Assembly (NCBI GenBank): GCA_045545335.1
Contig: JAZQAS010000130.1
Location: forward strand, 1-60,900
Direction of reading: 5' to 3'
Length of the DNA stretch: 60,900 nt
Source of the DNA: Candidatus Avispirillum sp.
GTDB taxonomy: Bacteria > Bacillota > Clostridia > Oscillospirales > CAG-272
A program made the translations under genes and the position numbers. This document shows positions 28,935 through 52,082 of this stretch, in pieces. The number at the start of each line of letters is the position of its first letter. Position 1 is the first letter of the stretch. The notes beneath the pieces are model-generated. The model saw nothing but the letters and a program-made list of their open reading frames with translations, was not told the DNA's origin and made no database searches.

Positions 28935-29840
28935 ATGAGCTATTACAGAAGCAGCTATTCAAAAAAGGGAAAGGGCCGCGGCGCAAAGCTTTCGGCAACT
29001 GCAAGCGCCGTCATAGTCCTTGTATTTATAATTCTCTATATTCTTGACAGTCAGTTCGGCTTTGGCAATAAGCAGGTGGAGGGCGAGTGCGAGTTCCACT
29101 TCATAGACGTAGGTCAGGGCGATGCAACAATGATAATCTCCTCCGACAGCACCGTTGTTATAGATACGGGCACGGGAGACCACGCCGACAGCTTTGCGCA
29201 GTACGTCAAGAGCTATACGGATAACGTTGATTATCTTATCCTGACCCATCCTCACGAGGACCATATCGGCGGCGCCGACGAGCTTTTGGAGCTTGTCCAC
29301 GTGGATAACGTCATAATGAGCGATGCATATAGCGAGACCTATACATTCACAAAGATACTTGATGCAATAGAGGCGGCGGATATCCCCGTCATAGAGGCAA
29401 AGGCCGGCGATAAATATGCGGCAGGGGAGATAGAGTTCACCATCCTCGCGCCCCTTTCCGAGTTTACGGATTATAACGATTACAGCATCGTAACCAAGGT
29501 AGAGTTCGGCTCTTCCTCCGTAATCGTAACGGGTGACGTCGAGCATCATTCCGAAAAGCTTATGGTGGAAAGATACGGCCCTTCGGGGCTGAAGGCTGAT
29601 ATCCTTCAGATGGGACATCACGGCTCCGCAACCTCAAATCACGAAAGCTTTATGGAGTGTATCGCTCCCGAATACGCCGTCATCTCCTGCGGCAAGGATA
29701 ACGAATACGGCCATCCCCACAGAGAGACCTTGCAGAAGCTTCGCGATTTTGATATCACCTATTACAGAACCGATAAGGTGGGCAGCATAGTTTTCAGAAC
29801 AGACGGCAAGAACCTCTCCTACGTAGAAGCAGCTCAGTGA
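28935..29840 (+). CDS. ComEC-related MBL-fold metallo-hydrolase (membrane-anchored)
   Basis: Motifs are [26 protein letters not shown] and MGHHGS, with an N-terminal TM segment. Confidence 0.8.
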
Positions 29841-30610
29841 ATTTTATATTTCAACCGCAGGTTGTCCGCGATCATGGCGATAAATTCGCTGTTGGTGGGC
29901 TTCCCGCGGTTGTTTTGTATAGTGTAGCCGAAATAAGAGTTGAGGGTGTCTATATCTCCGCGGTCCCAGGCCACCTCGATTGCGTGGCGGATAGCGCGCT
30001 CCACGCGTGAGGTGGTGGTTGAATATTTCTTTGCAACGGAGGGGTAGAGCACCTTTGTCACAGAGTTGATTATATCGCTGTCGCTGATGGTCATAAGAAT
30101 GGCGCATCTCAGATACTGATAGCCCTTTATGTGAGCGGGAACGCCTATCTGATGAATGATCTTCGTCACCTGAGCCTCAATATCGGGAGGAGCTGAGTTA
30201 ACGTTCCCCGCAGAAATGCTGCCCTCGGCGCGGCCGCGGTAGATAGAGATGATGTGATCCGCAAGGCTCTGATAGTCAAGGGGCTTGGGCAGGCAGAGAG
30301 CGGCGCCTGCGCGTGCGGCTTCAATAAATATGTTCTGATTTGTGATAAGTGAGGCGATAATAAATGCAGGTGCCTTGTCCTGACCGAAATCGCAGGAAAA
30401 GGTCTGCCTGATCAGGCCGATGCCGTCAAGCTTCGAGAGCCAGACGTCGGCAATAACGATATCGTGGTGGTTTCTTGTAATGCTTGTCAGCGCTTCTTCT
30501 CCGTTGGTAGCTTCATCAACGTAGCGGTGGCCTGCGCGAAGGAGGGCCTCCTTGCAGGCTTTTCTTGAGTCGGCGTTTTCGTCGGCTATAAGGATCTTGA
30601 TCTTCTCCAT
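29834..30610 (-). CDS. spo0A: Sporulation master regulator Spo0A
   Basis: It has a receiver domain ([16 protein letters not shown]) and a diagnostic C-terminal domain ([51 protein letters not shown]). Confidence 0.95.
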
Positions 30611-30774: not shown

Positions 30775-30801
30775 AAAAAAGCCTCCTTGGGGCTTTTTTT
30801 T
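30775..30801. terminator. Stand-alone terminator-type hairpin between spo0A and the capsid module
   Basis: AAAAAA-GCCTC-ctt-GGGGC-TTTTTTTT is symmetric, with A and T runs on both sides. Confidence 0.55.
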
Positions 30802-30916
30802 GTTTGAAAAGTTCAGCTTTGTTGCAATTTTGCAAAAAGGGGAGAAATGGAAAGGGGAGGTCAGTATAATCACCGTAGACTTTGCAAGGTCAGAAAAAAA
30901 GAAACGGAGGAAAACC

Positions 30917-31528
30917 ATGAGAAACGAAGAAATTGATCTTTGTCTTTTCGGTGAAGAAGCAGACTGCGCTGCAGAGCAGTCCTGCCATGATAAGGCGAGC
31001 GTATCAGCCGAGGGCGAAAGCGAAGAAAAAAGTGAAAACGTGTTTGAAAGAATTGCCCATACCCTCGGTATTGCCGGCGCCGATGAAGAGAGCCTTATGC
31101 GTGAGATCAATAAAAGAAAAGCGCGGGCAGCTCTTGAAGAAATGCTGAAAAGAAGAAGCGCCCGGCGCAATTATAAAGCATTGATCTCTGAGGCAGAAGG
31201 GCTTTCCTCAAAAATCAAGGGCTTTGATCTTAAGGCGGAGCTTCAGAACCCGTCCTTTGCGGCTCTCATTCGCGCAGGCTTCTCCCTTGAGGATGCCTTC
31301 AAGGCCGTTCATGTAAACGAGCTTTTGGCGCTTTACTGTAAAAGGGCAGAGGAGGCGGCTGTGGCAAAGGCCCTTGAAAGGCTGAGAGAAGCGGGAGACC
31401 GCCCCGATGAAAACGGAAAGGGCGCAAGAGCCCCCGCAAAGACCAAGGCCGCCGTTGAGGCCCTCAGCTCAAAGGGTATCAGAGATATCCTTCGCAGGGT
31501 AGAAAACGGACAGAAGATCAGATTTTAA
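30917..31528 (+). CDS. Phage scaffold-like acidic/helical protein
   Basis: It is about 203 aa from ATG 30917 (RBS GGAGGAAAACC), Glu/Ala/Lys-rich, and sits immediately upstream of the capsid gene. The call rests on position and composition only. Confidence 0.4.
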   Translation: MRNEEIDLCLFGEEADCAAEQSCHDKASVSAEGESEEKSENVFERIAHTLGIAGADEESLMREINKRKARAALEEMLKRRSARRNYKALISEAEGLSSKIKGFDLKAELQNPSFAALIRAGFSLEDAFKAVHVNELLALYCKRAEEAAVAKALERLREAGDRPDENGKGARAPAKTKAAVEALSSKGIRDILRRVENGQKIRF

Positions 31529-31546
31529 AACCGAAAGGAGAAAAAC

Positions 31547-32641
31547 ATGACAGAAAATAATGTAAATAAGGTAGACCTTCAGCTCTTCGGAGCAGGAGAT
31601 ACCGTTCATTCCACAGAGGCCTTCGTAAATGCAAACGACTCCGCAAAGAACGAGGCCTACGTGACAACTGCTAGTCAGGAGAGCGGCCTTGGCGCCGAGA
31701 TGAAGACCTTCTATGATAAGACTCTCATCGAGCTTGCAGGCCCCGCCCTCGTGTTCGATCAGTTTGCGCAGAAGCGTCCCATTCCCAAGAACGGCGGTAA
31801 GACCATTGAGTTCAGAAAGTTCAATGCTCTTCCCAAGGCTCTCACCCCCATCACCGAGGGCGTCACTCCCACAGCCTCCAAGCTCACCGTAGTTCCCGTA
31901 ACGGCAACCGTAGATCAGTACGGCGATTACGTAGAGCTCACGGATATGATCGAGCTCACAAGCGTGGATCCTCTGGTTGTGGAGGCAACAAAGCAGCTTG
32001 CAGATCAGGCGGGCAGAACTATTGATACGGTGGTCCGCAATCAGATCATGGGCGGCACAAACGTAAATTATTGCCCCCTCGTAGCCAATGACGGCACTGA
32101 GACTGAGATCACGTCCCGTAAGGCGCTCACCTCAGATTGCAAGCTCAGAGTGCGCGACGTGTTCCGCGCCGCAGCACAGCTCAAGGCAATGAACGCTCCC
32201 ACCATCGACGGCAGCTACGTTGCAGTCATCCACCCCTACGTAGCCTTTGACCTTATGCAGGATGCAAAGGGTCAGTGGCTCGATATTCAGAAGTATACCG
32301 ATCCCAAGAATATCCTCAAGGGCGAGATCGGAACTCTCGGCGGCGTGCGCTTCGTTCAGTCCTCCGAGGCTAAGATCTATACGGGAGACGAGGGCGGCAA
32401 GGACGGCGCGCCCGTGTTCTGCACTCTCTTTATCGGAGCCAATGCATACGGCTCCACCGATATTGCAGGCGGCGGCATTGAGCATATCGTAAAGCAGAAG
32501 GGTTACGGAAACGACCCCCTCAATCAGCGCTCAAGCGTGGGCTGGAAGGCAACTAAGGTAGCAGTTCGCCTCGTTGAAGAGTATATGCTTCGCGTTGAGT
32601 CCGGCTCCTCCTTCTCCGATACGTCCGTAGAGGCAAACTGA
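31547..32641 (+). CDS. Phage major capsid protein (HK97-fold type; resembles proteins annotated as N4-gp56-family MCP)
   Basis: 364 aa. It has an N-terminal DLQLFG motif common in Firmicute phage head proteins, plus KTIEFRKF, LTPITEGVTP, AVIHPYVAFDL and GGVRFVQS. This is recognition from memory, not a database search. Confidence 0.6.
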   Translation: MTENNVNKVDLQLFGAGDTVHSTEAFVNANDSAKNEAYVTTASQESGLGAEMKTFYDKTLIELAGPALVFDQFAQKRPIPKNGGKTIEFRKFNALPKALTPITEGVTPTASKLTVVPVTATVDQYGDYVELTDMIELTSVDPLVVEATKQLADQAGRTIDTVVRNQIMGGTNVNYCPLVANDGTETEITSRKALTSDCKLRVRDVFRAAAQLKAMNAPTIDGSYVAVIHPYVAFDLMQDAKGQWLDIQKYTDPKNILKGEIGTLGGVRFVQSSEAKIYTGDEGGKDGAPVFCTLFIGANAYGSTDIAGGGIEHIVKQKGYGNDPLNQRSSVGWKATKVAVRLVEEYMLRVESGSSFSDTSVEAN

Positions 32642-32642
32642 T

Positions 32643-32849
32643 ATGGGTGGTAATATGGAGAAGAGAACCGTGTATATTCCCCGCAAATCCAAGAACGATA
32701 CTGAGCGATACGTTGCCGTAAACGGCGAGAATATGCTCATCAAAACGGGCGTTGCGGTGGAGGTCCCCGCTCCCTTTGCGGAGGTAGTGGAGGAATCCCT
32801 TCGCGTAGACTCTGCGGCCGAAAGGTTCATAGAGAAGAATTCCAGATGA
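32643..32849 (+). CDS. Small head-module protein (unknown)
   Basis: 68 aa, tightly packed after the capsid gene. An alternative start is at 32655. Confidence 0.4.
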   Translation: MGGNMEKRTVYIPRKSKNDTERYVAVNGENMLIKTGVAVEVPAPFAEVVEESLRVDSAAERFIEKNSR

Positions 32850-32904
32850 TCTTATGGGGCTGTGGCAAAAGCAACAGCCCCAAATTTAAAAAGGAAGTGG
32901 TAAA

Positions 32905-33273
32905 ATGACAGTTAACGAAGCAGTAGCAAGGGCTTTGGAGAATTCAGGCGCCGACGTTTCGCGGCATCAGCTTTGCGCGTGGCTCGGCGAGATAGAAAAC
33001 ACCGTGGTGCAGGAGATAGCCAAGGTCCACGAGGGTATGCCCTATGATGAGACCGTCATAACAGCCGATACCGACGGAGAAAGGGTGCTTTTTGCCCCCG
33101 ACCCTTATAGCGCGCTGTACGTAAATTACCTTCTTATGAAAACGGATCTGTATCTCAGAGATACGGCTCAGTACGTAACGTCCTCTCACGTGTTTTCCGT
33201 TTCATATGCAGATTTTGCCGATTGGTATAACAGAGCGTATATGCCCTATGAGGGCGCTGAGATAAGGCTGTAA
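32905..33273 (+). CDS. Hypothetical protein (possible head-completion/connector role by position)
   Basis: 122 aa, on the same strand, with RBS GGAAGTGG. Confidence 0.45.
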   Translation: MTVNEAVARALENSGADVSRHQLCAWLGEIENTVVQEIAKVHEGMPYDETVITADTDGERVLFAPDPYSALYVNYLLMKTDLYLRDTAQYVTSSHVFSVSYADFADWYNRAYMPYEGAEIRL

Positions 33274-33282
33274 GGTGGCAGT

Positions 33283-35052
33283 ATGAGAATACCCTATTTG
33301 AATAAGGACAGAAGAGAGACCAAGGTGCAGGATACCTTTCTCGGATATGATAGATCAAGGGATGCCGAGGAGAAGGGGCTTTACGATTCTCTCAATATGT
33401 CGGCGGACGAATACCCTCTTCTCTCCGTGAGAAAGCCGCGGGCACAGGTGAATACCGAGGGTGCGCAAGTGTATGAGATAATGTCCCTCGATGCATACAG
33501 CGGCTCAGAGATAAGAAAGAACGCCCTCGTGGCAGATACCGAGGGACGCCTGAAGGTGTATTACCCCGAAAACGGAGTAATGACGGGCCACGATCTTGCA
33601 AATACTGTGGGCACTCTCACCTCAGGGCAAAAGACGGTGGCCCTTGCGGGAACGAAGATATATTTCTTTCCCGATAAGGTGTATTACGATCTTGTGAACC
33701 GCGGAGAGAGCGGATGGCTTGAGTATTCAACGGAGATGCCCCTCGGGCTTTATGACGGGGCGTTTATTGAGATAGGCCTTGAATGCTGTGATATATTCGG
33801 CTCAGACAGCAGTGAAGCCTCTCCCTACAGAAGACTTCGCAGAAGCGCCTATACGGCAACGGATGAGGGAGGAAAGGGAACCTTTAAGAAGTATATGCCC
33901 TTTTCCGCTTCTCTCGCAGAGGGAGATACGGTGAATATCACGGGCTTTCAGAGAGCCGAACTGAACGGATATTATAATATTAAGACCGTAGGGCAGGACA
34001 GAAGCTTTATCGTAATAGAAAGCCCCGAGACCTGCCTTCAGGATACGGGATGTATATATATCAAAAGAGAAGTGCCTGAGATGGATTTTGTCGTTTCGGC
34101 AAAGAACAGACTCTGGGGCTGTCGCTACGGAATGGATAAAAGCGGCAGGTGCGTAAACGAGATATACGCAAGCGCCGCGGGAGATGCGAAAAACTGGCAT
34201 AGATTTCAGGGCGTTTCCACAGATTCCTGGGCGGCGGAGGTAGGCGCCGCAGGCGCCTTCACGGGGGCCTTTTGCATTGACGGATGTCCCGTGTTCTTTA
34301 AGGAGGACGCGGTGATCAAGGTCCACGGCTCATACCCCTCTGAGTTCACCGTAACGGAGAGCGCCATCCGCGGAATAGAGGCGGGAAGCGAGAGAAGCGC
34401 CGTCATCGTGGGAGATGAGCTTTATTATAAGACATATAGCGGCATCGTGCGCTACGACGGAGGCTATCCCGTAAACGTGGATCGGGCCCTTGGCGGCGAG
34501 AGATATAAAAATGCCGTTGCAGGCAGCGACGGAGAGAAGTATTATATCTCAATGGAAAATGAAAAGGGCGAGAGATGCCTCTTTGTGTACGATACGAAAA
34601 AGCGGATATGGCACAGAGAGGATGACCCCGGCATCCTTTCCTTTTGCCGATGCGGAAGGGAGCTTTATTTTCTCTCCCGGGATAAGGAGGGAAATACCTC
34701 TGTTTGGTGCACCTCTCCGATGGTGGGCCTTGAGCCGGAAAAGGGAATATCCTGGTTTTGCGAGAGCGCAAGGCTCGGCTATGAGGCTCAGGGCCAAAAG
34801 CACGTAAGCTCAGTTCAGATAAGAGCAGACGTGGGAGCGGCGGCATCAATGTCCGTTGCCCTTGAGTATGACGGGGGCGGCAAATGGCAGAATATACGCA
34901 CCCTTCGGGGAAAAGGCAGAAATGCACTTCTGAGATTTGCTCCCCGCAGGTGCGATAGCTTCAGGATAAGGCTTTCGGGAAAGGGGGAGGCAAGGGTGAG
35001 AAGCGTGGCAAGGACCTATGAAGAGGGAAGCGCCTTTGAGCCTTTGCAGTAA
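33283..35052 (+). CDS. Large repeat-containing (beta-propeller-like) structural protein, unknown
   Basis: 589 aa with recurring motifs KIYFFPDKVYY, DELYYKTYSGIVRYDG, GEKYYISMEN and RELYFLSRDK. There are no portal or terminase motifs that I can recognise. Confidence 0.5.
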   Translation: MRIPYLNKDRRETKVQDTFLGYDRSRDAEEKGLYDSLNMSADEYPLLSVRKPRAQVNTEGAQVYEIMSLDAYSGSEIRKNALVADTEGRLKVYYPENGVMTGHDLANTVGTLTSGQKTVALAGTKIYFFPDKVYYDLVNRGESGWLEYSTEMPLGLYDGAFIEIGLECCDIFGSDSSEASPYRRLRRSAYTATDEGGKGTFKKYMPFSASLAEGDTVNITGFQRAELNGYYNIKTVGQDRSFIVIESPETCLQDTGCIYIKREVPEMDFVVSAKNRLWGCRYGMDKSGRCVNEIYASAAGDAKNWHRFQGVSTDSWAAEVGAAGAFTGAFCIDGCPVFFKEDAVIKVHGSYPSEFTVTESAIRGIEAGSERSAVIVGDELYYKTYSGIVRYDGGYPVNVDRALGGERYKNAVAGSDGEKYYISMENEKGERCLFVYDTKKRIWHREDDPGILSFCRCGRELYFLSRDKEGNTSVWCTSPMVGLEPEKGISWFCESARLGYEAQGQKHVSSVQIRADVGAAASMSVALEYDGGGKWQNIRTLRGKGRNALLRFAPRRCDSFRIRLSGKGEARVRSVARTYEEGSAFEPLQ

Positions 35053-35053
35053 A

Positions 35054-35239
35054 ATGAAGTTTCATATTTCAAGACCTCCCTCAGAGGGAGAAAACGTAAA
35101 TGAGCGGATCGATAGGCTCATTTCCTGGCTTGCCCTTCTTTCCGAAGGCCTCAACGTAACTCTTGAAAACCTCACCGAGGAGAATTTCACGGAGAGGACA
35201 CGAGAAAAATTATTCAGTAAGGAGGAAAAGGAAGAATGA
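35054..35239 (+). CDS. Small hypothetical protein
   Basis: 61 aa from ATG 35054, starting 2 nt after the previous stop. It overlaps the next gene by ATGA. Confidence 0.35.
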   Translation: MKFHISRPPSEGENVNERIDRLISWLALLSEGLNVTLENLTEENFTERTREKLFSKEEKEE

Positions 35240-35970
35240 TAAAGATACCTCTTATAGAGACCAATATGCCCGACGTATCTCTGATAGCGCAGAAGAACGG
35301 GCTTATAGACCCAAACGGAGTGGGCGGGGAGGCGCTCGTTAAGAGCGATGGCAGCGGCATCGTGAAAAATACCTATACCCCCCCATATTCTGCGGCGTAT
35401 ACCAAGGCCCCCGCATCCCTTGCGGGAGAGGTGAGCGCGGCAAAGGGCGAGCTTGACGCCTGGAAAAGCTCACGCCCCGCAGAGTACGTACCCGTCTACG
35501 GCAAGGAGATCTCAGAGCTTATGAAAAGCCTCGTGGGAGACGATTTCAGCTATGATGGGGCAAAGGACCCTCTTTTCGCTCTCCTGCGTGACGAGAGCAT
35601 AAAGAACGCCCGCCTTGCAATGGAGGATACGGTTGGTAAGGCCGTCTCCCTCAGCGGCGGATATATGAATAGCTTTGCCCAGAGCGCAGGCCAGCAGGCT
35701 TATAGCGACAGAATGTCCGATCATCTTGAATATATCCCCTCCCTTTACGAGGCGGCATACGAGAGATATTCCGATGAAAAGGACCGCCTCTACGATGCGG
35801 TAAAGCTTTATTCAAGCCTTGAGGACTCGGAGTTTGACCGTTATACGGATATAATGAAGCAGTATCTTTCCGAGGGCGAGCTTCTCTCGGATATTTATAG
35901 CTCCCTTCAGAAGGAGGAGTTTGACAGATTTCTTGATTATTCTGAGCTTATGATAAAGGCAACCAAATAA
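35236..35970 (+). CDS. Hypothetical protein (last gene of the capsid module)
   Basis: 244 aa, translationally coupled and followed by a terminator. Confidence 0.5.
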   Translation: MIKIPLIETNMPDVSLIAQKNGLIDPNGVGGEALVKSDGSGIVKNTYTPPYSAAYTKAPASLAGEVSAAKGELDAWKSSRPAEYVPVYGKEISELMKSLVGDDFSYDGAKDPLFALLRDESIKNARLAMEDTVGKAVSLSGGYMNSFAQSAGQQAYSDRMSDHLEYIPSLYEAAYERYSDEKDRLYDAVKLYSSLEDSEFDRYTDIMKQYLSEGELLSDIYSSLQKEEFDRFLDYSELMIKATK

Positions 35971-36095
35971 AAAGCCGCATACAACAATGAAATCCGCCGA
36001 TTATTTTCGGCGGATTTCTGCTTTTTTCTGTATTTTTTCGCTAAACGAAATATTATATATTTTGCGGCTTTTGTTCTGCGCCTTTCTCGACAGCC
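35969..36095 (-). repeat. Nested-hairpin element Z (copy 1; doubles as a bidirectional terminator)
   Basis: Its reverse complement aligns with 60689-60812: CTGTCGAGAAAGGCGCAGAACAAAAGCCGC..GAAATCCGCCGA-loop-TCGGCGGATTTC..GCGGCTTTTT. The outer stem is AAAGCCGC/GCGGCTTT and the inner hairpin is at 35989-36018. Confidence 0.65.
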
Positions 36096-36100: not shown

Positions 36101-38317
36101 TTACGGATAAATACCGAGACGGCGCGAGCCGTGCTCGTAGAACTGAGTCATGGGGTTAACGTCATAGATGCATTCTGCGGGGAGCACGTAGGAGTCAACT
36201 GAGGAAATGGGAACGTTGTTTTCCTTTATGTAGTTGTACATCCAGGAGTATCTCTCGCAGTAGAGCCTGCGGTTACCGTTGTTCACGAACCATTCGGTGT
36301 GGAGAGAGGAGAGACCCATAAAGTCGCAGCTGACGATAATTGTGGAAATGCGTCTTCTCTGAGTAGCGTTATGTGCCTTGTTGTAGGCAGAGGTGAGAAG
36401 GCCTCTCATATATTCGTAGTTTTCTCCGAGATATTCGTAGGACATCATATCGCCGGGGCGGTCAAAGTTATTGATAAAGCAGGTACCGCACTGATCTCCC
36501 GCCTCAGTGCACATCTCAATGTATTCAAAGAGCTCGTCAACACCGTCGCCGTAGTAGAAGTAGAGGAACTCGCGAATGATATCGTTGTATTCCTCGTAGG
36601 TCATATCGGGGTTCCAGAGAAGCTTGGAATAAACGTATGCCTTCAGGGCCTCGAAGTTGTTGTCAGCTCCGCCGCCCTCGTAGTAGATACCGGTAACTCC
36701 GCATTCCTCAATGAGATACTTCGTGTTGTAGTAGAGGTTGGGAATGTTGGGGCACCAGGAGAGGTAGTAGTGATAGTTAACGGGGTATACCCAGAACCAT
36801 ATCTCAGCGCCCGTTTCGCGGCAGAGGTTGCCCCAGTAGGTGAGAGCCTCGATATCGTCGTCGTTCTTCATACCGTTGAGCTGGCCGCCCTTTTCGTAGC
36901 ACTCCTCCATACCGAGGATGTGGTTGTGGCAGCTGACTCCGCAGTAGAGGATAACAAGGTTGTCCTCAGGCTTGATGGTCTTGGGGAAGTCCTTTGCGTA
37001 AACGATACCGTAAAGGCGGATGCCGGGGTAATAGTCCTGAATGTCGATAACCGCACGGTTATAAAGGCTGAGGTAAAGACCGGAGTAGCCCTCGACCTTT
37101 GAGATCTTCGTGCAGTTGCGGCAGGTGCAGTAGTTTTGGTTGTCGCAGATGGAGAAGGAGAAAACGGTGAGCCCTTCCTTGTAGTGAAGGTCGTTGCCCC
37201 AGTCCATGGACATAAGGTTGCAGTTGAGCATTCCCTCGAAAAGGGTGTTGTAATCCTTGTTGCTTGTAGCGCAGGGCTGCCAGCTGTAGGGATCGGGGAA
37301 GGTGCCTGAGGCAAATCTTGCGGCGCGAATCTCAGCGTCGGTCATTCCCGTCGTATCCTCGGGAACCTTGCCTGTGCCCATCTTCCAGTATTCGTAGAAG
37401 GAGTGCGCGTTGCTGTAGAGGGGGCCCGTCAGCGCGCCGTATCTCATATCGTCGTAGGCGTAGAGCTGAGTGCCGTTGAGCTTGTGGGCGAAATAGTGCT
37501 GGAAGGCACCGTCGTTGCCGTAGGTCTGGCAGGAGTGGCGGAAGGTGAGACGGGGGCTGTATTCATAAAGGGTGCCCTCGGGAATATCCACGTATCTTGC
37601 CTTATAGAGATAGGTCTCCTCGTTTGAATAGAAGCGGAAGCCGAGATAGTTTTCAAGTATCTCAAAAACGGAGTACATAGTGCCGCGGTACGTACCGTAG
37701 ATAAAGAGGTCTCCGTCCTTGACCTCGTATTTGAGGCCGTCCGTTCCGTATTTCTGACCCTCCTCGGAGAAGAGGTCTATCTGGCGGATGCGGATCATTT
37801 TCTCAGTCGTCTTGTTATCCTCGCCGAAAACGATGGGAAGGTCGATGGCAGTAGCCTTCTCAACGTACTTTTTAAGGTTGAGCGCGGCAAAGTAAGAGTT
37901 GTCGTTGTCCGTTGCATCAGCGTTCAGAACGATAGAGTAGCTTGAAATGGGGTTGCCTCCGACGGTAAGGCTGTAGACCTGTACCTGTCTGCCGTTCACG
38001 GTTTCAAAATCAGCAGCAGTTTTTGCGCCCGAGAGGATGAGCTTTAAGGAATAGGAGTCCTTTGCGCCCGCGTCGCGGTCAGCGTCAAGGTCCGCCGCCT
38101 CAAGGTCTATCTCATATCCGTCAAGACCTGCAACGTGGGCCTTTAAGGAAAGAGCGTCCTTTCCGTCAACAGCTCCGTCGCCGTTCACGTCTCCAAGCTG
38201 AAAGCCCTCGTCGTAAACGAATTTCTGACTGAGCCTGAAATCGTAGAGAGCAAAAGCGGAAACGGTCATTGAAAGAAGCATGGTGACCGTGATAATTAAA
38301 GCAATTATCTTTTTCAT
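36101..38317 (-). CDS. Secreted dockerin-containing protein, DUF4838-like putative glycoside hydrolase
   Basis: It has a signal peptide and a two-segment dockerin (GDVNGDGAVDGKDALSLK; DLDADRDAGAKDSYSLK). A conserved Cys cluster FSICDNQNYCTCRNC is present. The DUF4838 assignment is from memory. Confidence 0.75.
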   Translation of the reverse strand: MKKIIALIITVTMLLSMTVSAFALYDFRLSQKFVYDEGFQLGDVNGDGAVDGKDALSLKAHVAGLDGYEIDLEAADLDADRDAGAKDSYSLKLILSGAKTAADFETVNGRQVQVYSLTVGGNPISSYSIVLNADATDNDNSYFAALNLKKYVEKATAIDLPIVFGEDNKTTEKMIRIRQIDLFSEEGQKYGTDGLKYEVKDGDLFIYGTYRGTMYSVFEILENYLGFRFYSNEETYLYKARYVDIPEGTLYEYSPRLTFRHSCQTYGNDGAFQHYFAHKLNGTQLYAYDDMRYGALTGPLYSNAHSFYEYWKMGTGKVPEDTTGMTDAEIRAARFASGTFPDPYSWQPCATSNKDYNTLFEGMLNCNLMSMDWGNDLHYKEGLTVFSFSICDNQNYCTCRNCTKISKVEGYSGLYLSLYNRAVIDIQDYYPGIRLYGIVYAKDFPKTIKPEDNLVILYCGVSCHNHILGMEECYEKGGQLNGMKNDDDIEALTYWGNLCRETGAEIWFWVYPVNYHYYLSWCPNIPNLYYNTKYLIEECGVTGIYYEGGGADNNFEALKAYVYSKLLWNPDMTYEEYNDIIREFLYFYYGDGVDELFEYIEMCTEAGDQCGTCFINNFDRPGDMMSYEYLGENYEYMRGLLTSAYNKAHNATQRRRISTIIVSCDFMGLSSLHTEWFVNNGNRRLYCERYSWMYNYIKENNVPISSVDSYVLPAECIYDVNPMTQFYEHGSRRLGIYP

Positions 38318-38528: not shown

Positions 38529-40739
38529 ATGAAAAGAATCATAGCGGCGGTCATATTTTCGGCAATGCTGTTCACCTCTCTTGCAGGTACGGTGTCTGCC
38601 CTTGATCTGCCATTTGTTCAGGATTTTGAAATGGACGAGACCTTCATCCTCGGCGACGTAAACGGCGATAAGTCGGTGGATGGCAAGGATGCTCTTTCCT
38701 TAAAGGCGTTCGTTGCAGGCCTTGAGGGCTATGAGGTGGAGCTTGATGCGGCAGACTTTGATGCTGATAGCGATGCAAGCGCAAAGGACTCCTATTCCTT
38801 AAAGCTCATCCTCTCAGGAGCTAAAACTGCCGCCGATTTTGAGAATGGCGAGCAGATATATAAGCTGACCATCGGCGGCAACGATATAAAGGAATATTGC
38901 GTGGTTCTCCCCGAGGGAACGAGCGAGGATTCAAATATTCAGTTTGCATATCTCAATCTTGTTCAGTATATCGAAAAGGCAACGGGCTATCGCATTCCCA
39001 TGTGCTACGGCGCCCCCACAACTGAGAAGGCCATATATTTCAATCATATAGACCTTTGGAGCGAGGAAGGTCAGCGCCTTGGCGTTGAGGGCCTGAGATA
39101 TGAGGTGCGTGACGGAAACCTTTGCGTTTGGGGAACCTATCGCGGCAATGCATACGCAGTATTTGATATTCTTGAAAAGTATATCGGTGTGCGCTTTTTG
39201 TCAAATACCGCTACCTTTATCTTTAAGTCAAGATGCGTGGATATCCCCGAGGGGCTTTTTGTTGAGTATATCCCTAAGATCACCTTCCGCTATGCAGGCC
39301 AGACCTACGGCGGTGGCGACAGCGTAAAATACCATTATTATCCCCATAAGCTGAACGGCTCTCAGCTTTATCAGTACGATTCTCCCTTCTACGGAACAAA
39401 AACGGGCCCCGAATTCATCAATGCCCATTCCTTCGGCTATTATTGGGCGATGGGAACGGGAACGATGCCCGATGAGAGCTACGGCACTCTCTCCGAGAGA
39501 TATCAGTACAAGCACGACTCAGGCGAGATCGTTGATGAATATAAGTGGAACCCCTGCGCGACTGATAAAAAGGTATACGATATCATCTTCTCGGGACTCA
39601 TAGATACCACCCTTATGGTTATGAGCTGGGGAAGAGTATACCGCTTTGAGGAGGACCTGAGCGCAATGTCCTTCTCCATTTGCGATAATCAGAATTATTG
39701 CAGCTGCCGCTACTGCGCAAAGACGGCTGTGAAAGAAAAGGAGGGCTATTCGGGCCTCTACGTGCAGATGACCAATAAGGCCTGCGATGACGTGCAGGCA
39801 TATTTCCCCGGCTGCAAGCTTTATATGATCCTCTACGATCATACCATCCCCGCCACCATCAAGCCCCACGATAAGATAATCCTTATGTATTGCGGAACGG
39901 GCTGTGATAATCATATCCTCGGTATGGAGGAGTGCTATGAGAAGGGCGGACAGCTCAATCATTCAAGCAATAAGGGAGATATAACGGCGCTTCCCGCCTG
40001 GGGCGAGCTTTGCCGCGAAACGGGAGCGGAGCTTTGGTTCTGGGTCTATGCGGTCACCTATCACTATTATATGATAGGCTGTCCCAATATCCCCAATATC
40101 TATTACAATCTCAAATGGATGATAGATAATGCAAACGTAACGGGCGTGTATTACGAGGGCGGCGGACGCACCTATAATTTCGAGACCTTGAAGGCTTACC
40201 TTGCAGTCAAGCTTATGTGGGAGCCTCATATGACCTACGATGAGTTCGTGGGGCACGCAAAGGAATATCTCTATATGTGGTATGGCGACGGCTATGAGGA
40301 GCTTTGGGAGTATATCCTTATGCAGACCGAAGCGGGAGATCAGTGCGGCACCTGCTTTATCAATAACTTCGACCGTCCCGGCGATATGTATTCCTACGAA
40401 TATATGGGCGAAAACTATGAGTATATGAGAGGCCTTCTCGTGTCGGCCTATGAGAAAACGAAGAATAACGCTCAGGAAAACAGGGTCAATACCCTCATCG
40501 TATCCTGCGACTTTATGGGCCTTTCCTCTCTCCATACGGATTGGTACTTAAACGGAGATACCGAATCAAGACAGCTTTATATGGAGCGCTACCTCTGGAT
40601 GCATACCTATATAAAGAACCATAACCTGAGAATATTCAGGGATAATACTTACCTGTTCCCCGAGACTGTTGATTATGAGACCAATCCCATGATCCAGTTC
40701 TACGAGCACGGCTCACGCCGTCTCGGTATTTATCCTTAA
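38529..40739 (+). CDS. Secreted dockerin-containing protein, DUF4838-like (paralog, divergent orientation)
   Basis: It is collinear with 36101-38317 over its full length and has the same Cys cluster (FSICDNQNYCSCRYC). The C-terminus is identical: QFYEHGSRRLGIYP. Confidence 0.75.
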   Translation: MKRIIAAVIFSAMLFTSLAGTVSALDLPFVQDFEMDETFILGDVNGDKSVDGKDALSLKAFVAGLEGYEVELDAADFDADSDASAKDSYSLKLILSGAKTAADFENGEQIYKLTIGGNDIKEYCVVLPEGTSEDSNIQFAYLNLVQYIEKATGYRIPMCYGAPTTEKAIYFNHIDLWSEEGQRLGVEGLRYEVRDGNLCVWGTYRGNAYAVFDILEKYIGVRFLSNTATFIFKSRCVDIPEGLFVEYIPKITFRYAGQTYGGGDSVKYHYYPHKLNGSQLYQYDSPFYGTKTGPEFINAHSFGYYWAMGTGTMPDESYGTLSERYQYKHDSGEIVDEYKWNPCATDKKVYDIIFSGLIDTTLMVMSWGRVYRFEEDLSAMSFSICDNQNYCSCRYCAKTAVKEKEGYSGLYVQMTNKACDDVQAYFPGCKLYMILYDHTIPATIKPHDKIILMYCGTGCDNHILGMEECYEKGGQLNHSSNKGDITALPAWGELCRETGAELWFWVYAVTYHYYMIGCPNIPNIYYNLKWMIDNANVTGVYYEGGGRTYNFETLKAYLAVKLMWEPHMTYDEFVGHAKEYLYMWYGDGYEELWEYILMQTEAGDQCGTCFINNFDRPGDMYSYEYMGENYEYMRGLLVSAYEKTKNNAQENRVNTLIVSCDFMGLSSLHTDWYLNGDTESRQLYMERYLWMHTYIKNHNLRIFRDNTYLFPETVDYETNPMIQFYEHGSRRLGIYP

Positions 40740-44016: not shown

Positions 44017-45111
44017 ATGGCAGTAAAGTTTCTCGAGGCGGCAGGCGCCGCATTTGCGTTTGCGGCAGACCCTGTGAACTATGAGAGATGTGATATCGGA
44101 CATATCAACGACACGTACTTTGTAGATTGCGGCGAGGGCAATCCCCGCTATCTTCTCCAGAGAGTAAATACAAGCATCTTCAAGGACCCCATCAAGCTTA
44201 TGGAGAATATGAAGGGCGTATGCACACACGTAGCAAAGAAGGTTTGCGAGGCAGGCGGCGATACAGACCGCGAGGTAAGAAAGATCATCTTCACAAAGAC
44301 GGGAGAGGATTATTTCGTAGACCCCGACGGATGCTATTGGAGAGCCTTTCTTGAGATCGATAACGTAGTTTCCTATAATTCCCCCGATTCTCCCGAGCTT
44401 TTCTATAAGAGCGCGGTAGCCTTCGGTAAGTTCTTCAATCAGCTTGCAGACTATCCTGCAGAAACTCTCCACGAGACCATCCCCAATTTCCATAACTCCG
44501 TAAGCCGTATGAACGATTTCAAGGCGGCAGTAGCTGAGGATAAGATGGGCCGTGCCTCTGAGATGAAGGAAGAGATCGAGTTTGCTCTTTCCAAGGAGCC
44601 CCAGTGCTCTTATATCCTTGACAGACTGGCAGACGGCCGCTTCAAGCTTTGCGTAACTCATAACGACACAAAGCTCAATAACGTTCTTATGGACGCTGAG
44701 AGCGGCGAGGGCGTATGCATCATCGACCTTGATACCGTAATGCCCGGAAGCGTTCTTTACGACTTTGGCGATGCTATCCGCTTCGGCGCATCCAGCGCTG
44801 CAGAGGACGAGACCGACCTTGATAAGGTATACGTAGATCTTGAGATGTTCGAGACCTTCGTAAAGGGCTTCGTCGGCGAGCTTCACGATTCCATGACCGA
44901 GGATGAGATCCTCTCACTTCCCATGGGCGCATATCTTATGACTCTTGAAACAGGTATCCGCTTCCTCGGCGACTACCTGAACGGAGACGTATATTTCCAT
45001 ATCCGCTATCCCGAGCATAACCGCGACCGCGCGAGAAACCAGCTCAAGCTTATCGCAGATATGGATAAGAAGATGGCAGAAATGCAGGAGATCGTAAAGA
45101 AGTATCTCTGA
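44017..45111 (+). CDS. nahK: N-acetylhexosamine 1-kinase-like phosphotransferase (APH/NahK family)
   Basis: It is collinear with my recollection of Bifidobacterium NahK: HINDTY, RVTHNDTKLNNVLMD, IIDLDTVMPGSVLYDFGDAIRFGASS and YPEHN. Confidence 0.7.
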   Translation: MAVKFLEAAGAAFAFAADPVNYERCDIGHINDTYFVDCGEGNPRYLLQRVNTSIFKDPIKLMENMKGVCTHVAKKVCEAGGDTDREVRKIIFTKTGEDYFVDPDGCYWRAFLEIDNVVSYNSPDSPELFYKSAVAFGKFFNQLADYPAETLHETIPNFHNSVSRMNDFKAAVAEDKMGRASEMKEEIEFALSKEPQCSYILDRLADGRFKLCVTHNDTKLNNVLMDAESGEGVCIIDLDTVMPGSVLYDFGDAIRFGASSAAEDETDLDKVYVDLEMFETFVKGFVGELHDSMTEDEILSLPMGAYLMTLETGIRFLGDYLNGDVYFHIRYPEHNRDRARNQLKLIADMDKKMAEMQEIVKKYL

Positions 45112-45142
45112 TAAAGAAGATAAAATCCGAACGGAGACCGTT

Positions 45143-46237
45143 ATGGAAGTAAAATATCTTGATCTGGCAGGAGCGGCATTTGAGTTTGCCGCTCCTCCCG
45201 TCAGTTTTAAAAGGTGCAGCGCAGGTCATATAAGCTATACCTTTTTTGTTGATTGCGGAGAGGGAAATCCCGAGTATATCCTTCAGAAGCTGAACACTGA
45301 GATATTCAGCGATCCCGAGGCCCTCATGTCCAATATCAAGGGCGTATGCGCCCATATGGCAAAAAAGGTCAAAAAAGAGGGGGGCGACCCTCTCAGAGAA
45401 GTGAGAACAGTGATCACCACCAAGGACGGAGAGGATTATTTCGTAGACCCTGAGGGCGGATACTGGAGAGCATTTCTCGGAATAGATAACGTAATATCCT
45501 ATGAGCATCCCGAGTCGGCAGAGATATTTTATGAGAGCGCCGTGGCATTTGCAAGATTTGCCCGCCGCCTTAGCGATTATCCCGCAAAGAGCCTGTATGA
45601 GATCATCCCCGATTTTCATAATACGAAAAAGAGGATGGAGGATTTCAAGGCCGCGGTAGAGAGGGATAAGCTGGGCCGTGCCCGCGAGGTCGCCGCAGAG
45701 ATAGATTTTGCTCTCTCAAAGGAGCCTATGTGCGGTTATATAACGGACGGACTTGCCATGGGCCGCTTCAAAACGAGAGTCACCCATAACGATACAAAGA
45801 TAAGCAACGTGCTTATGGATAAGGAGAGCGGCCGCGGCATCTGCATTATCGACCTTGATATAGTAATGCCGGGAAGCCTGCTTTACGATTTCGGCGATGC
45901 TATCCGCGTGGGCGCGTCAACTGCCCCCGAGGATGAGAAGGAGCTTTCAAAGATCGGACTTGACCTTCATATGTTCGAGGCCTTCGTTCGCGGATTTGTT
46001 GAAGAGCTTTCAGGCCATATCACCGAGGAGGAGATACTGTCTCTTCCCATGGGCGCCTATCTTATGACCCTTGAAACGGGTATCCGTTTCCTTGGCGATT
46101 ATCTTGATGGCGACGTTTATTATCATATCTCCTATCCCGAGCATAACCGCGACCGTGCAAGAAACCAGCTTTGCCTCCTTTCCGATATGGGAGCAAAGAT
46201 CGGCGCAATGCAGGAAATAGTAAGAAAGTATATCTGA
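45143..46237 (+). CDS. nahK: N-acetylhexosamine 1-kinase-like phosphotransferase (tandem paralog)
   Basis: It has the same length (364 aa) and motifs (HNDTKISNVLMD, IIDLDIVMPGSLLYDFGDAIRVGAST). Confidence 0.7.
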   Translation: MEVKYLDLAGAAFEFAAPPVSFKRCSAGHISYTFFVDCGEGNPEYILQKLNTEIFSDPEALMSNIKGVCAHMAKKVKKEGGDPLREVRTVITTKDGEDYFVDPEGGYWRAFLGIDNVISYEHPESAEIFYESAVAFARFARRLSDYPAKSLYEIIPDFHNTKKRMEDFKAAVERDKLGRAREVAAEIDFALSKEPMCGYITDGLAMGRFKTRVTHNDTKISNVLMDKESGRGICIIDLDIVMPGSLLYDFGDAIRVGASTAPEDEKELSKIGLDLHMFEAFVRGFVEELSGHITEEEILSLPMGAYLMTLETGIRFLGDYLDGDVYYHISYPEHNRDRARNQLCLLSDMGAKIGAMQEIVRKYI

Positions 46238-48665: not shown

Positions 48666-49793
48666 ATGAAAACAAAAACTCCCAAGGTAGAGCACGGCAT
48701 AGTACATCGTTATCCCTCTGACCATAACTGCTTCAGATATAACGCGTGGCCCACCGTTTGTAAGGATGACCGCGGCGTCCTTTATGCAACCGCATCAGGA
48801 CTCAGAATGTCTCACGTAGACCCCTGCGGCAAGAACGTAATGTGGGTAAGCTTTGACGACGGAGATAGCTGGACTCCCCCCATCATCGTAAACGACTCCA
48901 ATTATGACGACCGCGATACGGGTATCCTTTATCTTGGAAACGGTAAGATGCTTATGTCCTGGTTTACAAGCGTGTATGCGAACGATCTTGAGCATATGCA
49001 GGAGCAGGAGTGGCTCCATCCCTCCGATAAGGCAATGATGGCAGGCTGGACACAGTATTGGAGAACTCTTCCCAAGGAGTCCCGTAAGGATGAGTGGGGC
49101 AGCTTCGTAAAGCTCTCCGATGACTACGGCGTGACCTGGGGCGAAAATATCAGAGTGCCCGTGTCAAGCCCCCACGGCCCCTGCGTTGCAAAGGACGGCA
49201 CTATATATTACCTCGGTAAGACCATGAATTTCGAGCACCCCTACGGCCCCGACGTTGAGTGCCATAAGAGCTTGGACGGCGGACATACCTGGGAGTATTG
49301 CGGAACAGTTCCCAATTTTGAAAACTTCCTTCCCAATCAGGTGCACGAGCCCCATATAGTAGAGCTCCCCTCCGGTAGACTTCTCGGTGCAATGAGAGTC
49401 AACGGCAGAAATGAAAAGCCCGTTGATACAACGTATCTCACCTATTCCGATGATAAGGGCAAGACCTGGTCCACACCTAAGTGCTGCGGAGTAGACGGTA
49501 TGCCTCCTCACTTTATGATGCATTCCTCAGGCGCTCTCATCCTCAGCTATAGCTGCAGAAACGAGCCCGACCGCTGTATGTCCGAGCGCGCCGTTATCAG
49601 CTATGACGAGGGCGAGACCTGGAGCGATGAGTATATCCTTGATGATAGGATCAATATGGAAAAGCAGAGAGATATGGGCTATCCCGCAACGGTAGAGCTC
49701 TCCGACGGCTCTCTCCTCACCCTTTATTATCAGGCGCTTCCCGACGATTGGCATACAAGTATTCTTTATACTAAATGGAGAATAGAGGAATAA
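48666..49793 (+). CDS. BNR/Asp-box repeat beta-propeller protein (sialidase-like glycoside hydrolase), cytoplasmic
   Basis: The Asp-box motifs are SFDDGDSW, SDDYGVTW, SLDGGHTW, SDDKGKTW and SYDEGETW. There is no signal peptide. Confidence 0.75.
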   Translation: MKTKTPKVEHGIVHRYPSDHNCFRYNAWPTVCKDDRGVLYATASGLRMSHVDPCGKNVMWVSFDDGDSWTPPIIVNDSNYDDRDTGILYLGNGKMLMSWFTSVYANDLEHMQEQEWLHPSDKAMMAGWTQYWRTLPKESRKDEWGSFVKLSDDYGVTWGENIRVPVSSPHGPCVAKDGTIYYLGKTMNFEHPYGPDVECHKSLDGGHTWEYCGTVPNFENFLPNQVHEPHIVELPSGRLLGAMRVNGRNEKPVDTTYLTYSDDKGKTWSTPKCCGVDGMPPHFMMHSSGALILSYSCRNEPDRCMSERAVISYDEGETWSDEYILDDRINMEKQRDMGYPATVELSDGSLLTLYYQALPDDWHTSILYTKWRIEE

Positions 49794-50914
49794 TGAAGAT
49801 AATCAAAGAGAACTTTGAAACGGGCGTAGTCCATCGCTATGCGGGCGATCATAACCCCTTCAAGTATAACGCCTGGCCCTCCCTTGCTGTTGGCGATAAC
49901 GGCTGGCTCTATGCCGTAGCGTCAGGCCTCAGAATGTCCCACGTAGACCACGCAGGCAAGAATATTATGTGGGTAAGCTTTAACGAGGGCAAGACCTGGA
50001 CTCCCCCCATCGTAGTTTATGACTCAAAGATAGATGACCGCGACCCCGGTATCCTTAACCTCGGCGGCGGAAAAATGCTTATGTCCTGGTATACCGATAA
50101 CTATGAGGGCTACCTTGACCATATGCAGGAGCAGACCTGGCTCCCCGCAGGTGATAAGGCAATGATGAAGGGATACAGCGACTATTGGCATACCCTTTCT
50201 GATGAGGATTATAACGCAGAGAAGGGAAGCTACGTCAGCCTTTCAAAGGATAACGGCGTGACCTGGGGCGACCCTGTTCGCCTGAACGTTCATTCTCCCC
50301 ATGGCCCCTGCCGCTGTAAGGACGGCACTCTCGTGTATATGGGCAAGAGATTTGAGCCCGAATACGCGTATGATAACGATTTCGTCTGCTATACAAGCTC
50401 AGATGACGGTCAGACCTGGGAATTTGCAGGAACAGTCCCCCCCTGCGAGGATGCAGACTACGGCCAGATGTACGAGGCTCATCAGGTAGAGCTCCCCTCG
50501 GGAAGAATTCTCGGCGGTATGCGAGTAAACGGCAGAAAGGACGCGCCCGCAGACTCGGTTTACGTAACCTATTCCGACGATAAGGGTAAGACCTGGAGTG
50601 TCCCCAAGTGTATCGGAGTAGACGGAATGCCTCCCCATTTTATGGTGCATTCATCAGGCGCCGTAATATGCAGCTATTCCTGCCGTACCTGGGGCAATAT
50701 CACCGAACGTGCCGTTGTCAGCTACGACGGCGGAGAGACCTGGGAGGAGGACTACGTCCTCAACGATAATATCAATATGGAAAAGCAGAGAGATATGGGA
50801 TATCCCGCAACGGTGGAGCTTCCCGACGGCTCACTCTTTACTATCTATTATCAGGCCCTCCCCGAGGATTGGCACACAAGCATCCTATGGACAAAGTGGA
50901 GCCTTAAGAAATGA
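49793..50914 (+). CDS. BNR/Asp-box repeat beta-propeller protein (tandem paralog)
   Basis: It has the same Asp-box series (SFNEGKTW..SYDGGETW). The start ATG 49793 overlaps the previous stop (TAATG). Confidence 0.75.
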   Translation: MKIIKENFETGVVHRYAGDHNPFKYNAWPSLAVGDNGWLYAVASGLRMSHVDHAGKNIMWVSFNEGKTWTPPIVVYDSKIDDRDPGILNLGGGKMLMSWYTDNYEGYLDHMQEQTWLPAGDKAMMKGYSDYWHTLSDEDYNAEKGSYVSLSKDNGVTWGDPVRLNVHSPHGPCRCKDGTLVYMGKRFEPEYAYDNDFVCYTSSDDGQTWEFAGTVPPCEDADYGQMYEAHQVELPSGRILGGMRVNGRKDAPADSVYVTYSDDKGKTWSVPKCIGVDGMPPHFMVHSSGAVICSYSCRTWGNITERAVVSYDGGETWEEDYVLNDNINMEKQRDMGYPATVELPDGSLFTIYYQALPEDWHTSILWTKWSLKK

Positions 50915-51590: not shown

Positions 51591-52041
51591 ATTATTAGAT
51601 TCAACCGACCATTTCTGGCAAATTGCAAAGAAATATGCTGAGAATTGTTCGTGGAGAGCAGGTAAAAATCTCGCTTTTTTGATGAAAGAAAATCAGTTTT
51701 CAGATTGGGAGAAAGTGATTGTAGTAACGGAAAATGAAGATATATGCGGATTTTGTACGGTTCAAAAAAATGATTGTATTCCCGATGTTTCCTATACTCC
51801 GTATGTAAGTTACATTTTCGTCGATGAAAAATACAGAGGTAACCGTTTGAGTCAGTTGATGATTCAATACGCGGAACGGTATTTGAAGAAAGTAGGATTT
51901 TCAGACATTTACCTTATTAGCGATCATGAAAATCTTTATGAAAAATACGGTTTTGTTGTGATAGACAGAAAAGTAGCGCCTTGGGGTAGTGTTGAAAAAA
52001 TATATAGAAAAGAAATAAATATATCCACTTATACAGAATAA
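51580..52041 (+). CDS. GNAT-family N-acetyltransferase
   Basis: 153 aa with the acetyl-CoA motif region VDEKYRGNRLSQLMIQYAERY. It overlaps the RAYT-like gene end and is AT-rich. Confidence 0.78.
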   Translation: MKFRLLDSTDHFWQIAKKYAENCSWRAGKNLAFLMKENQFSDWEKVIVVTENEDICGFCTVQKNDCIPDVSYTPYVSYIFVDEKYRGNRLSQLMIQYAERYLKKVGFSDIYLISDHENLYEKYGFVVIDRKVAPWGSVEKIYRKEINISTYTE

Positions 52042-52059
52042 GTTATTGTATCAGATAAC

Positions 52060-52082
52060 GTAGGGGCGACCATTGGTCGTCC
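52060..52082 (+). repeat. REP-like palindrome (doublet, left)
   Basis: GTAGGGGCGACCATTGGTCGTCC has a GTAG head and an 8-bp stem with a 3-nt loop. It is the perfect reverse complement of 52207-52229. Confidence 0.75.

Follow-up and report, generated by a model that had tools for sequence, protein, structure and literature searches.

The DNA analyzed here, which we call the window, is a 60.9-kb stretch of the genome of Candidatus Avispirillum sp., and all module coordinates refer to the whole of it. In its middle the open reading frame (ORF) listing places seven intact ORFs on the plus strand, g1 to g7 (30917-35970; Table 1), referred to below as the cassette. An earlier note, made from the letters of the sequence, had described them as a tightly packed, same-strand phage head module set among host genes, a layout that is confirmed. 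The left neighbor is spo0A, divergently transcribed (29834-30610; Spo0A_C 1.4e-46) and itself preceded by FtsX/ABC transporter genes, a GHL10 hydrolase and a metallo-beta-lactamase, and the right neighbors are two dockerin/DUF4838 genes. The remaining genes of the window are also host-like (hydrogenase genes, MgsA, RecD2, MetK, transporters, and APH and BNR paralogues). As had been claimed, genes for portal, terminase, the protease Prp, lysis and integrase are missing from the entire 60.9 kb in tblastn, Pfam and PHROGs searches, and a stand-alone hairpin upstream and a strong terminator at the end of the module both exist. The base composition, which the note had likened to the GC-rich core of the window, is indistinguishable from that of the host genes (52.1% versus 50.8% GC; 58.6% versus 61.1% at third codon positions).

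Table 1. Genes of the cassette and elements of its control region, with positions in the window.
Feature	Position	Strand	Size or remark	Basis
Upstream terminator-like hairpin, AAAAAAGCCTCC-TTG-GGGGCTTTTTT	30775-30799	+		
O1 palindrome TTGCAATTTTGCAA, putative regulator site	30822-30835	.		
Promoter core GGGAGA-N19-TATAAT	30840-30870	+		
O2 dyad GACTTTGCAAGGTC, putative operator over the transcription start	30878-30891	.	7 nt after the -10	
g1, scaffold-like protein	30917-31528	+	203 aa, ATG 30917	phrog_13908, 9.6e-23
g2, N4-gp56-family major capsid protein	31547-32641	+	364 aa	TIGR04387, PF25209, phrog_1357
g3, small conserved protein	32643-32849	+	68 aa	phrog_15239
g4, probable head-to-tail adaptor	32905-33273	+	122 aa	phrog_12105, 2.3e-23; position
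g5, podovirus tail nozzle/hub	33283-35052	+	589 aa	AlphaFold2 model and Foldseek
g6, small acidic protein	35054-35239	+	61 aa from ATG 35054 (ORF opens at 35018)	
g7, predicted elongated all-alpha protein	35236-35970	+	244 aa	AlphaFold2 model; podovirus family
Bidirectional intrinsic terminator	35989-36018	.	12-bp stem	

The assignment of g2 as a major capsid protein (MCP) holds in every profile collection searched, above the cutoffs, with 275.6 bits for NCBIfam TIGR04387 (cutoff 60), 43.3 for Pfam Phage_capsid_4 (PF25209; cutoff 27) and 4.5e-85 for the PHROG major head protein phrog_1357. Matches to solved capsid proteins at the sequence level are weak (E 9e-4), and an exact-sequence look-up of this MCP in public assemblies returned no record. 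The product of g1 is homologous to that of the gene sitting between Prp and the MCP in related phages. Both proteins start with a Prp-type motif, MRNEEIDLCLF/GEE in g1 and VDLQLF/GAG in g2 (the slash marks the predicted cut), which is found in the MCP of every locus of the cassette clade (group A, below) and in most of its scaffolds. The residue after the phenylalanine is G rather than A in most cassettes, while the phage relatives have LQLF/A and encode their own Prp directly upstream of the scaffold gene, a gene that the cassettes lack. A similar arrangement is known from phage 80alpha, in which the host Prp cleaves L27-like leaders off the capsid and scaffold proteins (PMC5744158). There too the leaders of both proteins end in F/A or F/G and the phage has no protease gene; the cassette differs in having mostly G after the phenylalanine, and its cleavage is predicted from the motifs. 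Since no protease gene is present and the host enzyme acts on 80alpha, the cassette can rely on the host as well, and host Prp would trim g1 and g2. Most cassette MCPs are about 450 aa long, with an insertion of about 90 aa near residue 282 or so (e.g., L006, 10001-11359), which is absent from the subclade of the window (359-364 aa) and may be a surface domain gained or lost after domestication.

The 589-aa product of g5, for which the earlier note had offered portal, nozzle or adaptor, is a nozzle. It aligns with the C-terminal part of phrog_511, and its AlphaFold2 model, built on an alignment of 42 sequences, has a pLDDT of 88.9 and a pTM of 0.84. Compared with the PDB using Foldseek, its best 25 matches were all podovirus tail, nozzle or portal-tail complex entries where these were named, among them T7 gp12 (one entry by name), P22 gp10 (several), Sf6, Pa223, HRP29, P-SCSP1u, SU10 and crAss001. 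E-values ran from 6e-16 to 5e-11 for ranks 1 to 23 and were 1.6e-9 and 1.5e-8 for ranks 24 and 25; all had probability 1.0, with TM-scores mostly between 0.4 and 0.66 and lower for rank 25, crAss001 (0.33/0.16). By its modeled, beta-propeller-based fold, g5 is thus a tail nozzle or hub of the T7 gp12/P22 gp10 type. Nothing usable came from comparing the sequences of g4, g5 and g7 with PDB chains. In most loci, of cassettes and phages alike, g4 is the gene immediately before the nozzle gene, and one relative of its product has a faint match to SU10_adaptor (E 0.058). The head-to-tail adaptor likewise precedes the nozzle in T7 (gp11-gp12) and P22 (gp4-gp10), and by analogy g4 is probably the adaptor linking the nozzle to a portal. 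With a nozzle in g5 and probably an adaptor in g4, the description of the module as head only and without tail genes has to be amended to head plus neck/nozzle.

The remaining three proteins are less easily named. The small protein g3 is 65-81% identical within the cassette clade. Homologues of g6 measure 58-84 aa as called or as the longest ORF, and most shorten to 58-65 aa with alternative downstream starts. In the window, g6 most likely starts at 35054, which gives it the length of its homologues and leaves no overlap with g5. Neither g6 nor g7 has a Pfam or PHROG match. The AlphaFold2 model of g7 (pLDDT 77) contains a helix of about 100 residues and has no significant match in the PDB, and in BFVD it matches only uncharacterized podovirus proteins. 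Its homologues in most of group A carry an N-terminal LysM domain, and those in phages PG_binding_1 or CW_7. Because such domains are found on most relatives, action at the cell wall rather than in the cytoplasm is indicated, and the family probably provides a needle, plug, ejection or wall-penetration protein.

To see how widespread the cassette is, one genome per GTDB species was scanned with a g5 profile, which gave 80 loci splitting into two groups, A and B. Group A contains at least 26 species-level genomes, all with g1 to g7 in identical order; many are 'Candidatus Avispirillum sp.' and the rest are metagenome-assembled genomes classified as Clostridia, Oscillospiraceae or Eubacteriales. 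The latter stem from goat, sheep and water deer, and an isolate name points to rabbit; MCP look-ups added cassette contigs from Hadza human-gut assemblies. Identity to the window is 75-90% for the MCP and 39-57% for the nozzle. Group B is more distant (nozzle 31-36%, MCP 35-63%) and, where the flank is available, almost all of its loci have TerL-portal-(Prp) directly upstream. None of these three genes was found in the flanks of the 26 group-A loci (up to 10 kb per side; 12 loci with 7-10 kb upstream). Look-ups of MCP relatives likewise returned the seven genes between host flanks, on contigs of 12.5-634 kb and at differing chromosomal sites; the lengths of g1 to g7 in two of these were 206/363/67/122/585/62/244 aa and 262/452/76/119/588/58/256 aa.

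In neighbor-joining trees, group A forms one clade with a bootstrap of 100/100, whether the tree is built on the nozzle (84 taxa) or on the MCP (70 taxa). All seven ORFs are intact in the approximately 22 species examined. The species are saturated at synonymous sites, and the median ratios of nonsynonymous to synonymous substitution (dN/dS), taken over the pairs with usable dS, are 0.29 for g1, 0.10 for g2, 0.14 for g3, 0.23 for g4, 0.14 for g5, 0.35 for g6 and 0.32 for g7. The long residence or domestication put forward in the earlier note agrees well with a unit that is conserved in at least 26 species, forms a single clade, is under purifying selection and has a control region of its own. 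The alternative that it had left, a well-ameliorated prophage remnant, does not fit a unit that is not strain-specific, with intact ORFs and dN/dS of 0.10-0.35. The comparative and profile data revealed neither confinement to one strain, nor pseudogenes nearby, nor a failure of the capsid assignment.

The flanks tell a similar story. The order FtsX-ABC-GHL10-metallo-beta-lactamase-spo0A(-)-cassette is common to the window, another Candidatus Avispirillum sp. (L021) and L052, and in L017 spo0A adjoins the cassette at the end of the contig. Other subclades have other flanking blocks in common, with partial deeper synteny. This pattern is one of vertical inheritance with local rearrangement. The adjacency to spo0A exists in three other species (L021, L052 and L017), but it characterizes one subclade and is not general. 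We rejected a link to sporulation through spo0A as a general feature, since the cassette adjoins rpoD/AsnA, HIT/VanZ or phosphomutase/WYL genes in other subclades. A search of the flanks for gene families traveling with the cassette found only host synteny blocks.

The closest cultured relatives of the MCP are those of the Page-like podoviruses of Bacillus megaterium (38% identity), whose gene order is TerS, TerL, portal, scaffold, MCP, three small genes and tail protein. More closely related are podoviruses and prophages from the gut, uncultured and about 42-45 kb long. One of them, L009, starts with TerS, TerL, a P22/SU10-type portal, Prp, scaffold, MCP (66% identity) and two small genes, and continues with a 588-aa homologue of g5, tail proteins, a g7 homologue with PG_binding_1 and a giant protein. 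In these phages the genes generally run TerS-TerL-portal-(Prp)-scaffold-MCP-g3-g4-g5...g7, and tail and lysis genes come next. In L009, the closest phage, two tail-protein genes separate the g5 homologue from that of g7; in L065, L090 and the Faecalibacterium locus L013 the g7 homologue is the next gene after g5. By gene order, the cassette corresponds to the stretch of the phage genome from the scaffold gene through the g5 homologue, plus g7. No phage copy found exceeds about 70% identity to the MCPs of the cassettes. The order of modules varies among these phages: the nozzle gene comes directly after TerL and before the portal in L002 (nozzle 2937-4691), L067 and L083, and the head genes are apart from the portal-nozzle genes in L153, L185, L206 and L207. 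Better-known podoviruses have comparable late regions, with gp9 to gp12 in T7 and gp8, gp5, gp4, gp10 and gp26 in P22. Like the cassette, these run from scaffold through capsid, adaptor (in some) and nozzle to needle or internal proteins; unlike them, the cassette has no portal before the scaffold and no fibers, tailspikes or lysis genes, and its capsid is of the N4-gp56 family.

Upstream of g1, the group-A loci have the same order of elements irrespective of their neighbors: terminator, O1, GGGAG(A/C)-N19-TATAAT, O2, ribosome-binding site and ATG. Hairpins similar to the one upstream in the window stand just ahead of the control region at other cassette loci. O1, with the consensus (T/A)TGCA-N4-TGC(A/G)A, lies upstream of the promoter in most of them, at 4-5 or 14-16 nt from GGGAGA; the two spacing classes are about one helical turn apart, so that O1 stays on the same face of the DNA. 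O2 is a 14-bp dyad at a fixed offset, with at least 6 of 7 arm matches in 25 of 27 unique promoters, compared with 2% of shuffles. The four bases at its center are self-complementary in every case (CGCG, TGCA, CATG or CCGG), which indicates a DNA operator rather than an RNA hairpin. Throughout the 1.53 Mb of collected loci, 29 of the 30 matches to the promoter core are located directly upstream of g1 in cassettes. The window has a single copy each of O1, O2 and the core, and a scan for sigma-A-type promoters gave nothing above chance.

The same core is found in phages. Six of 175 phage-type loci (L150-152, L285, L287 and L293) have GGGAGA-N19/20-TATAAT between Prp and the scaffold gene, and in five of the six (L150-152, L285 and L287) a second copy stands upstream of the TerS/TerL-portal unit, the copy ahead of TerS/TerL in L150-152 fitting only a relaxed pattern (-10 TAAAAT). 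The positions of these late promoters on the IMG/VR contigs include 176 and 4658 in L150, 4602 and 8936 in L285, and 3917 in L293. Each of the phage GGGAGA-N19/20-TA(T/A)AAT promoters follows a terminator, and most have a common motif in the 5' untranslated region, GACACTTCGGAAAG. The core is therefore phage in origin and serves related phages as a late promoter. Since it heads the TerS/TerL and scaffold units in phages, the cassette begins at a natural boundary between transcription units, and it would thus be one complete phage late transcription unit to which further operators and insulating terminators were added later. The phage promoters have neither O1 nor O2, an absence that suggests control from the host side. 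A gene for a WYL/HTH (PafC-like) regulator is located immediately 3' of g7 in one cassette subclade (L010/L011, 14999-15904); it is a candidate for the regulator and is not found in the window.

One of the closest known systems is also found in gut Clostridia. In Faecalibacterium prausnitzii, the gene transfer agent (GTA) FpGTA is encoded by an operon I of ten ORFs (TerS, TerL, portal, scaffold, MCP and conserved hypothetical proteins) and, 125 kb away, an operon II with tail-fiber, receptor-binding protein and lysis genes, and its 40-nm particles contain about 8.5-9 kb of host DNA (PMC12946183). GTA-like packaging of host DNA has recently been reported to be common in gut Clostridia, including other Ruminococcaceae, Oscillospiraceae and Christensenellaceae, with genes assigned only in Faecalibacterium (PMC12946183). 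Among our loci, the fecal-virome contig L013 (MT836159.1) carries ten ORFs: TerS, TerL, a small ORF, portal, Prp::scaffold, MCP, g3, g4, g5 and a g7-like gene. The MCP encoded there bears the name 'MULTISPECIES: N4-gp56 family major capsid protein [Faecalibacterium]' and is present on at least 1000 contigs including 3.1-Mb chromosomes. Given the ten-ORF content and the wide distribution of this MCP in Faecalibacterium, L013 appears to represent the FpGTA-I type of locus, matched by gene content and MCP name. In L013, the Prp domain and the scaffold are fused in a 336-aa ORF (4778-5788) with a Prp-type site, DLQLF/AD, at the junction, an arrangement by which the scaffold may release itself.

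The cassette and the last six or seven genes of L013 are collinear; identity is 55% in the MCP, about 28% in the nozzle and about 30% in g7. Both FpGTA and the cassette are podovirus-derived structural genes in chromosomes of gut Clostridia, without replication and lysogeny genes, and the distribution of one particle's genes over more than one locus, as in FpGTA, is what we propose for the cassette. However, FpGTA I keeps TerS, TerL, portal and the scaffold-fused Prp in one operon, whereas the cassette starts at the scaffold and lacks them; the O1/GGGAGA-N19-TATAAT/O2 control region is present in the cassette and absent from L013; and particles and DNA packaging have been demonstrated for FpGTA, while the cassette lineage is known from its genes.

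A sister lineage is represented by L305 (6126-20235 of JAFRRP010000004.1, GCA_017428085.1), a chromosomal podovirus-derived element with host genes on both sides. Here the order is portal, an inserted MgtC gene, Prp-scaffold-MCP-g3-g4-nozzle-g6-g7, a 1234-aa fiber, XkdX, amidase and holin-like genes; no terminase was found at the locus. A distinctive promoter-like sequence (GTGCCGCAAACCGGACGCAG...GCTACAAT) precedes the portal gene and again Prp, so that the same structural module as in the cassette is arranged in units with a common promoter. Related Clostridia thus keep one ancestral structural module that is cut at different places. A more distant parallel is RcGTA of the Alphaproteobacteria, which is vertically inherited, has host composition, evolves under purifying selection, is spread over several loci and is regulated at the host level. 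It has in common with the cassette the vertical inheritance of phage structural genes, the host composition and the purifying selection, but it resembles siphoviruses, has no sequence relationship to the cassette, and keeps terminase and portal in its head locus.

The cassette is a domesticated unit under selection, with an identified capsid and nozzle and a dedicated control region, and the domesticated, GTA-like interpretation of the earlier note is supported. What kind of system it belongs to is less certain. We think there is an even chance that it is one locus of a split, podovirus-derived GTA-like system whose portal and terminase are encoded elsewhere. A conserved adaptor and nozzle make sense only with a portal, and together with the homology to FpGTA this makes the split GTA-like system the best reading. 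Several attributes of a GTA are indeed seen: a chromosomal, phage-derived structural cluster without replication, lysogeny or integrase genes, vertical inheritance with purifying selection in the host clade, and collinearity with a demonstrated GTA through L013. In this scenario, the late transcription unit of a podovirus with an N4-gp56 capsid and a P22/SU10-type portal would have been captured by the ancestor of the 'Candidatus Avispirillum' lineage of gut Clostridia and passed on vertically since then. A dimeric regulator bound at O1 and O2 may keep the operon silent until a trigger arrives; once on, it would provide the head shell and the neck/nozzle of a tail-stub particle, with portal, terminase, receptor-binding and lysis functions supplied from one or more other loci. 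The particle would then package host DNA, as the two-locus FpGTA does.

Some observations weigh against the split GTA-like system. Neither portal nor terminase was found for any cassette-bearing genome, within up to 10 kb per side of the loci and across the 60.9-kb window. When JGI metagenomes were scanned for O1 combined with the promoter, a pattern that would miss partner promoters without a canonical O1, 52 stretches came up, of which five were real; all five were further cassettes, and no second locus with the same control region appeared. Scanning IMG/VR with a portal profile for orphan TerL-portal loci returned only complete or rearranged phage genomes. Moreover, a phage late promoter core might make expression dependent on an infecting phage, no wall-binding domain was detected in the g7 of the window itself, and this lineage is known from its genes. 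Two other candidates were discarded: a promoter look-alike in L110, upstream of an unrelated 220-aa protein and probably due to chance, and the single, chance match of a promoter-pattern search for partner loci in IMG/VR.

Perhaps the cassette does its work in a genome that encodes no matching portal or terminase, either as a decoy triggered by phages or as a DNA-free particle with a repurposed nozzle; we regard this as unlikely, though a real possibility. The first version deserves attention because the promoter core is a phage late promoter, which makes phage-triggered defense or piracy a serious rival. The module would be silent until a related podovirus infects, when the late-gene activator of the phage would fire the GGGAGA-N19-TATAAT promoter, and the capsid, adaptor and nozzle of the cassette would co-assemble with the portal and terminase of the phage, either poisoning its assembly as a decoy defense or diverting packaging to host DNA. 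The cassette lacks exactly what an infecting phage would bring (portal, terminase and Prp), terminators on both sides and two operator-like dyads suit a locus that must stay off, the core is common to the late promoters of related phages, and the promoter-pattern scans found no partner locus. Nevertheless, inheritance is vertical and syntenic rather than patchy as in most defense islands, and the slow evolution of the MCP (dN/dS 0.10) gives no sign of arms-race diversification. Co-assembly is doubtful at an identity of at most about 70% to phage MCPs, and the lack of O1 and O2 in phage promoters again suggests host-side control. On this evidence, we consider the phage-responsive module rather improbable.

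Still less probable, in our judgment, is a shell that needs no portal, that is, closed DNA-free particles, encapsulin-like or released, in which the nozzle and g7 would have been repurposed as cargo or surface parts. The lack of portal and terminase near any of the 26 loci fits this idea, and conservation is much stronger in the MCP and g3 than in the rest of the unit, so that the shell could be the selected part. Yet the nozzle (dN/dS 0.14), g4 and g7 are intact in every species examined, and we know of no role for a nozzle and an adaptor without a portal. The MCP belongs to a phage family (TIGR04387) and not to the encapsulin family, no cargo-type enzyme gene is attached, and most relatives of g7 carry wall-binding domains. 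The nanocompartment that the earlier note had listed as an option loses ground, since the unit, with its phage N4-type MCP and scaffold gene, has kept neck and nozzle parts together with those of the head.

A passive remnant or a mobile satellite is effectively excluded. For a non-functional prophage whose decay has not yet begun, a very remote prospect, one could cite the incomplete gene set and a function deduced from sequence, but seven intact genes in at least 26 synonymously saturated species at such dN/dS, in a single clade with an invariant control region, flanking terminators and host-like composition, speak against it. A mobile satellite of the phage-inducible chromosomal island (PICI) type with its own capsid, as in capsid-forming PICIs (cf-PICIs), would likewise have capsid genes without a full phage genome; it is just as implausible in view of the syntenic position among related species and of the lack, within 10 kb at any locus, of integrase, replication, small-terminase and portal genes or att-like repeats.

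Elsewhere in the window, three AT-rich islands (33-40% GC; 11000-13400, 51000-52400 and 55000-57200) carry a methyltransferase and a 347-aa protein, a GNAT acetyltransferase, and a DUF4275 protein; in contrast to the cassette, they look like later insertions. The dockerin/DUF4838 proteins to the right of the cassette are divergent paralogues of 738 and 736 aa (36101-38317 on the minus strand and 38529-40739 on the plus strand), with homologues near the cassette also in L016 and L021. Three small genes, one of them similar to ParA/phrog_19408, lie between two tandem pairs of paralogues, APH-family phosphotransferases and BNR-repeat proteins, at 44017-46237 and 48666-50914. A gene for a 23S rRNA intervening-sequence protein (PF05635) is located at 10767-11126, 20 kb from the cassette; L003 has PF05635 genes on both sides of its cassette (8329-8691 and 15193-15573), and the window homologue is 59% identical.

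For this lineage, no viriform locus of the GTA-like kind derived from podoviruses has been described, and for literature naming Avispirillum none of the listed titles and abstract openings is about capsid or phage genes. The cassette makes up a second lineage of chromosomal particle genes derived from podoviruses, partitioned independently and hosted by an uncultured clade that is widespread in animal and human guts; the seven genes, together with the diagnostic control region, serve as a clean set of markers. The results show that elements of this kind come apart where phage late promoters mark a boundary and acquire host-type operators afterwards, so that searches for O1 plus O2 offer a concrete route to the remaining loci and to the regulator. 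If portal and terminase are truly absent, the cassette would be a new functional class of domesticated capsid genes; the decoy version, if true, would mean a new, vertically inherited anti-phage or transduction-promoting module wired to a phage late promoter.

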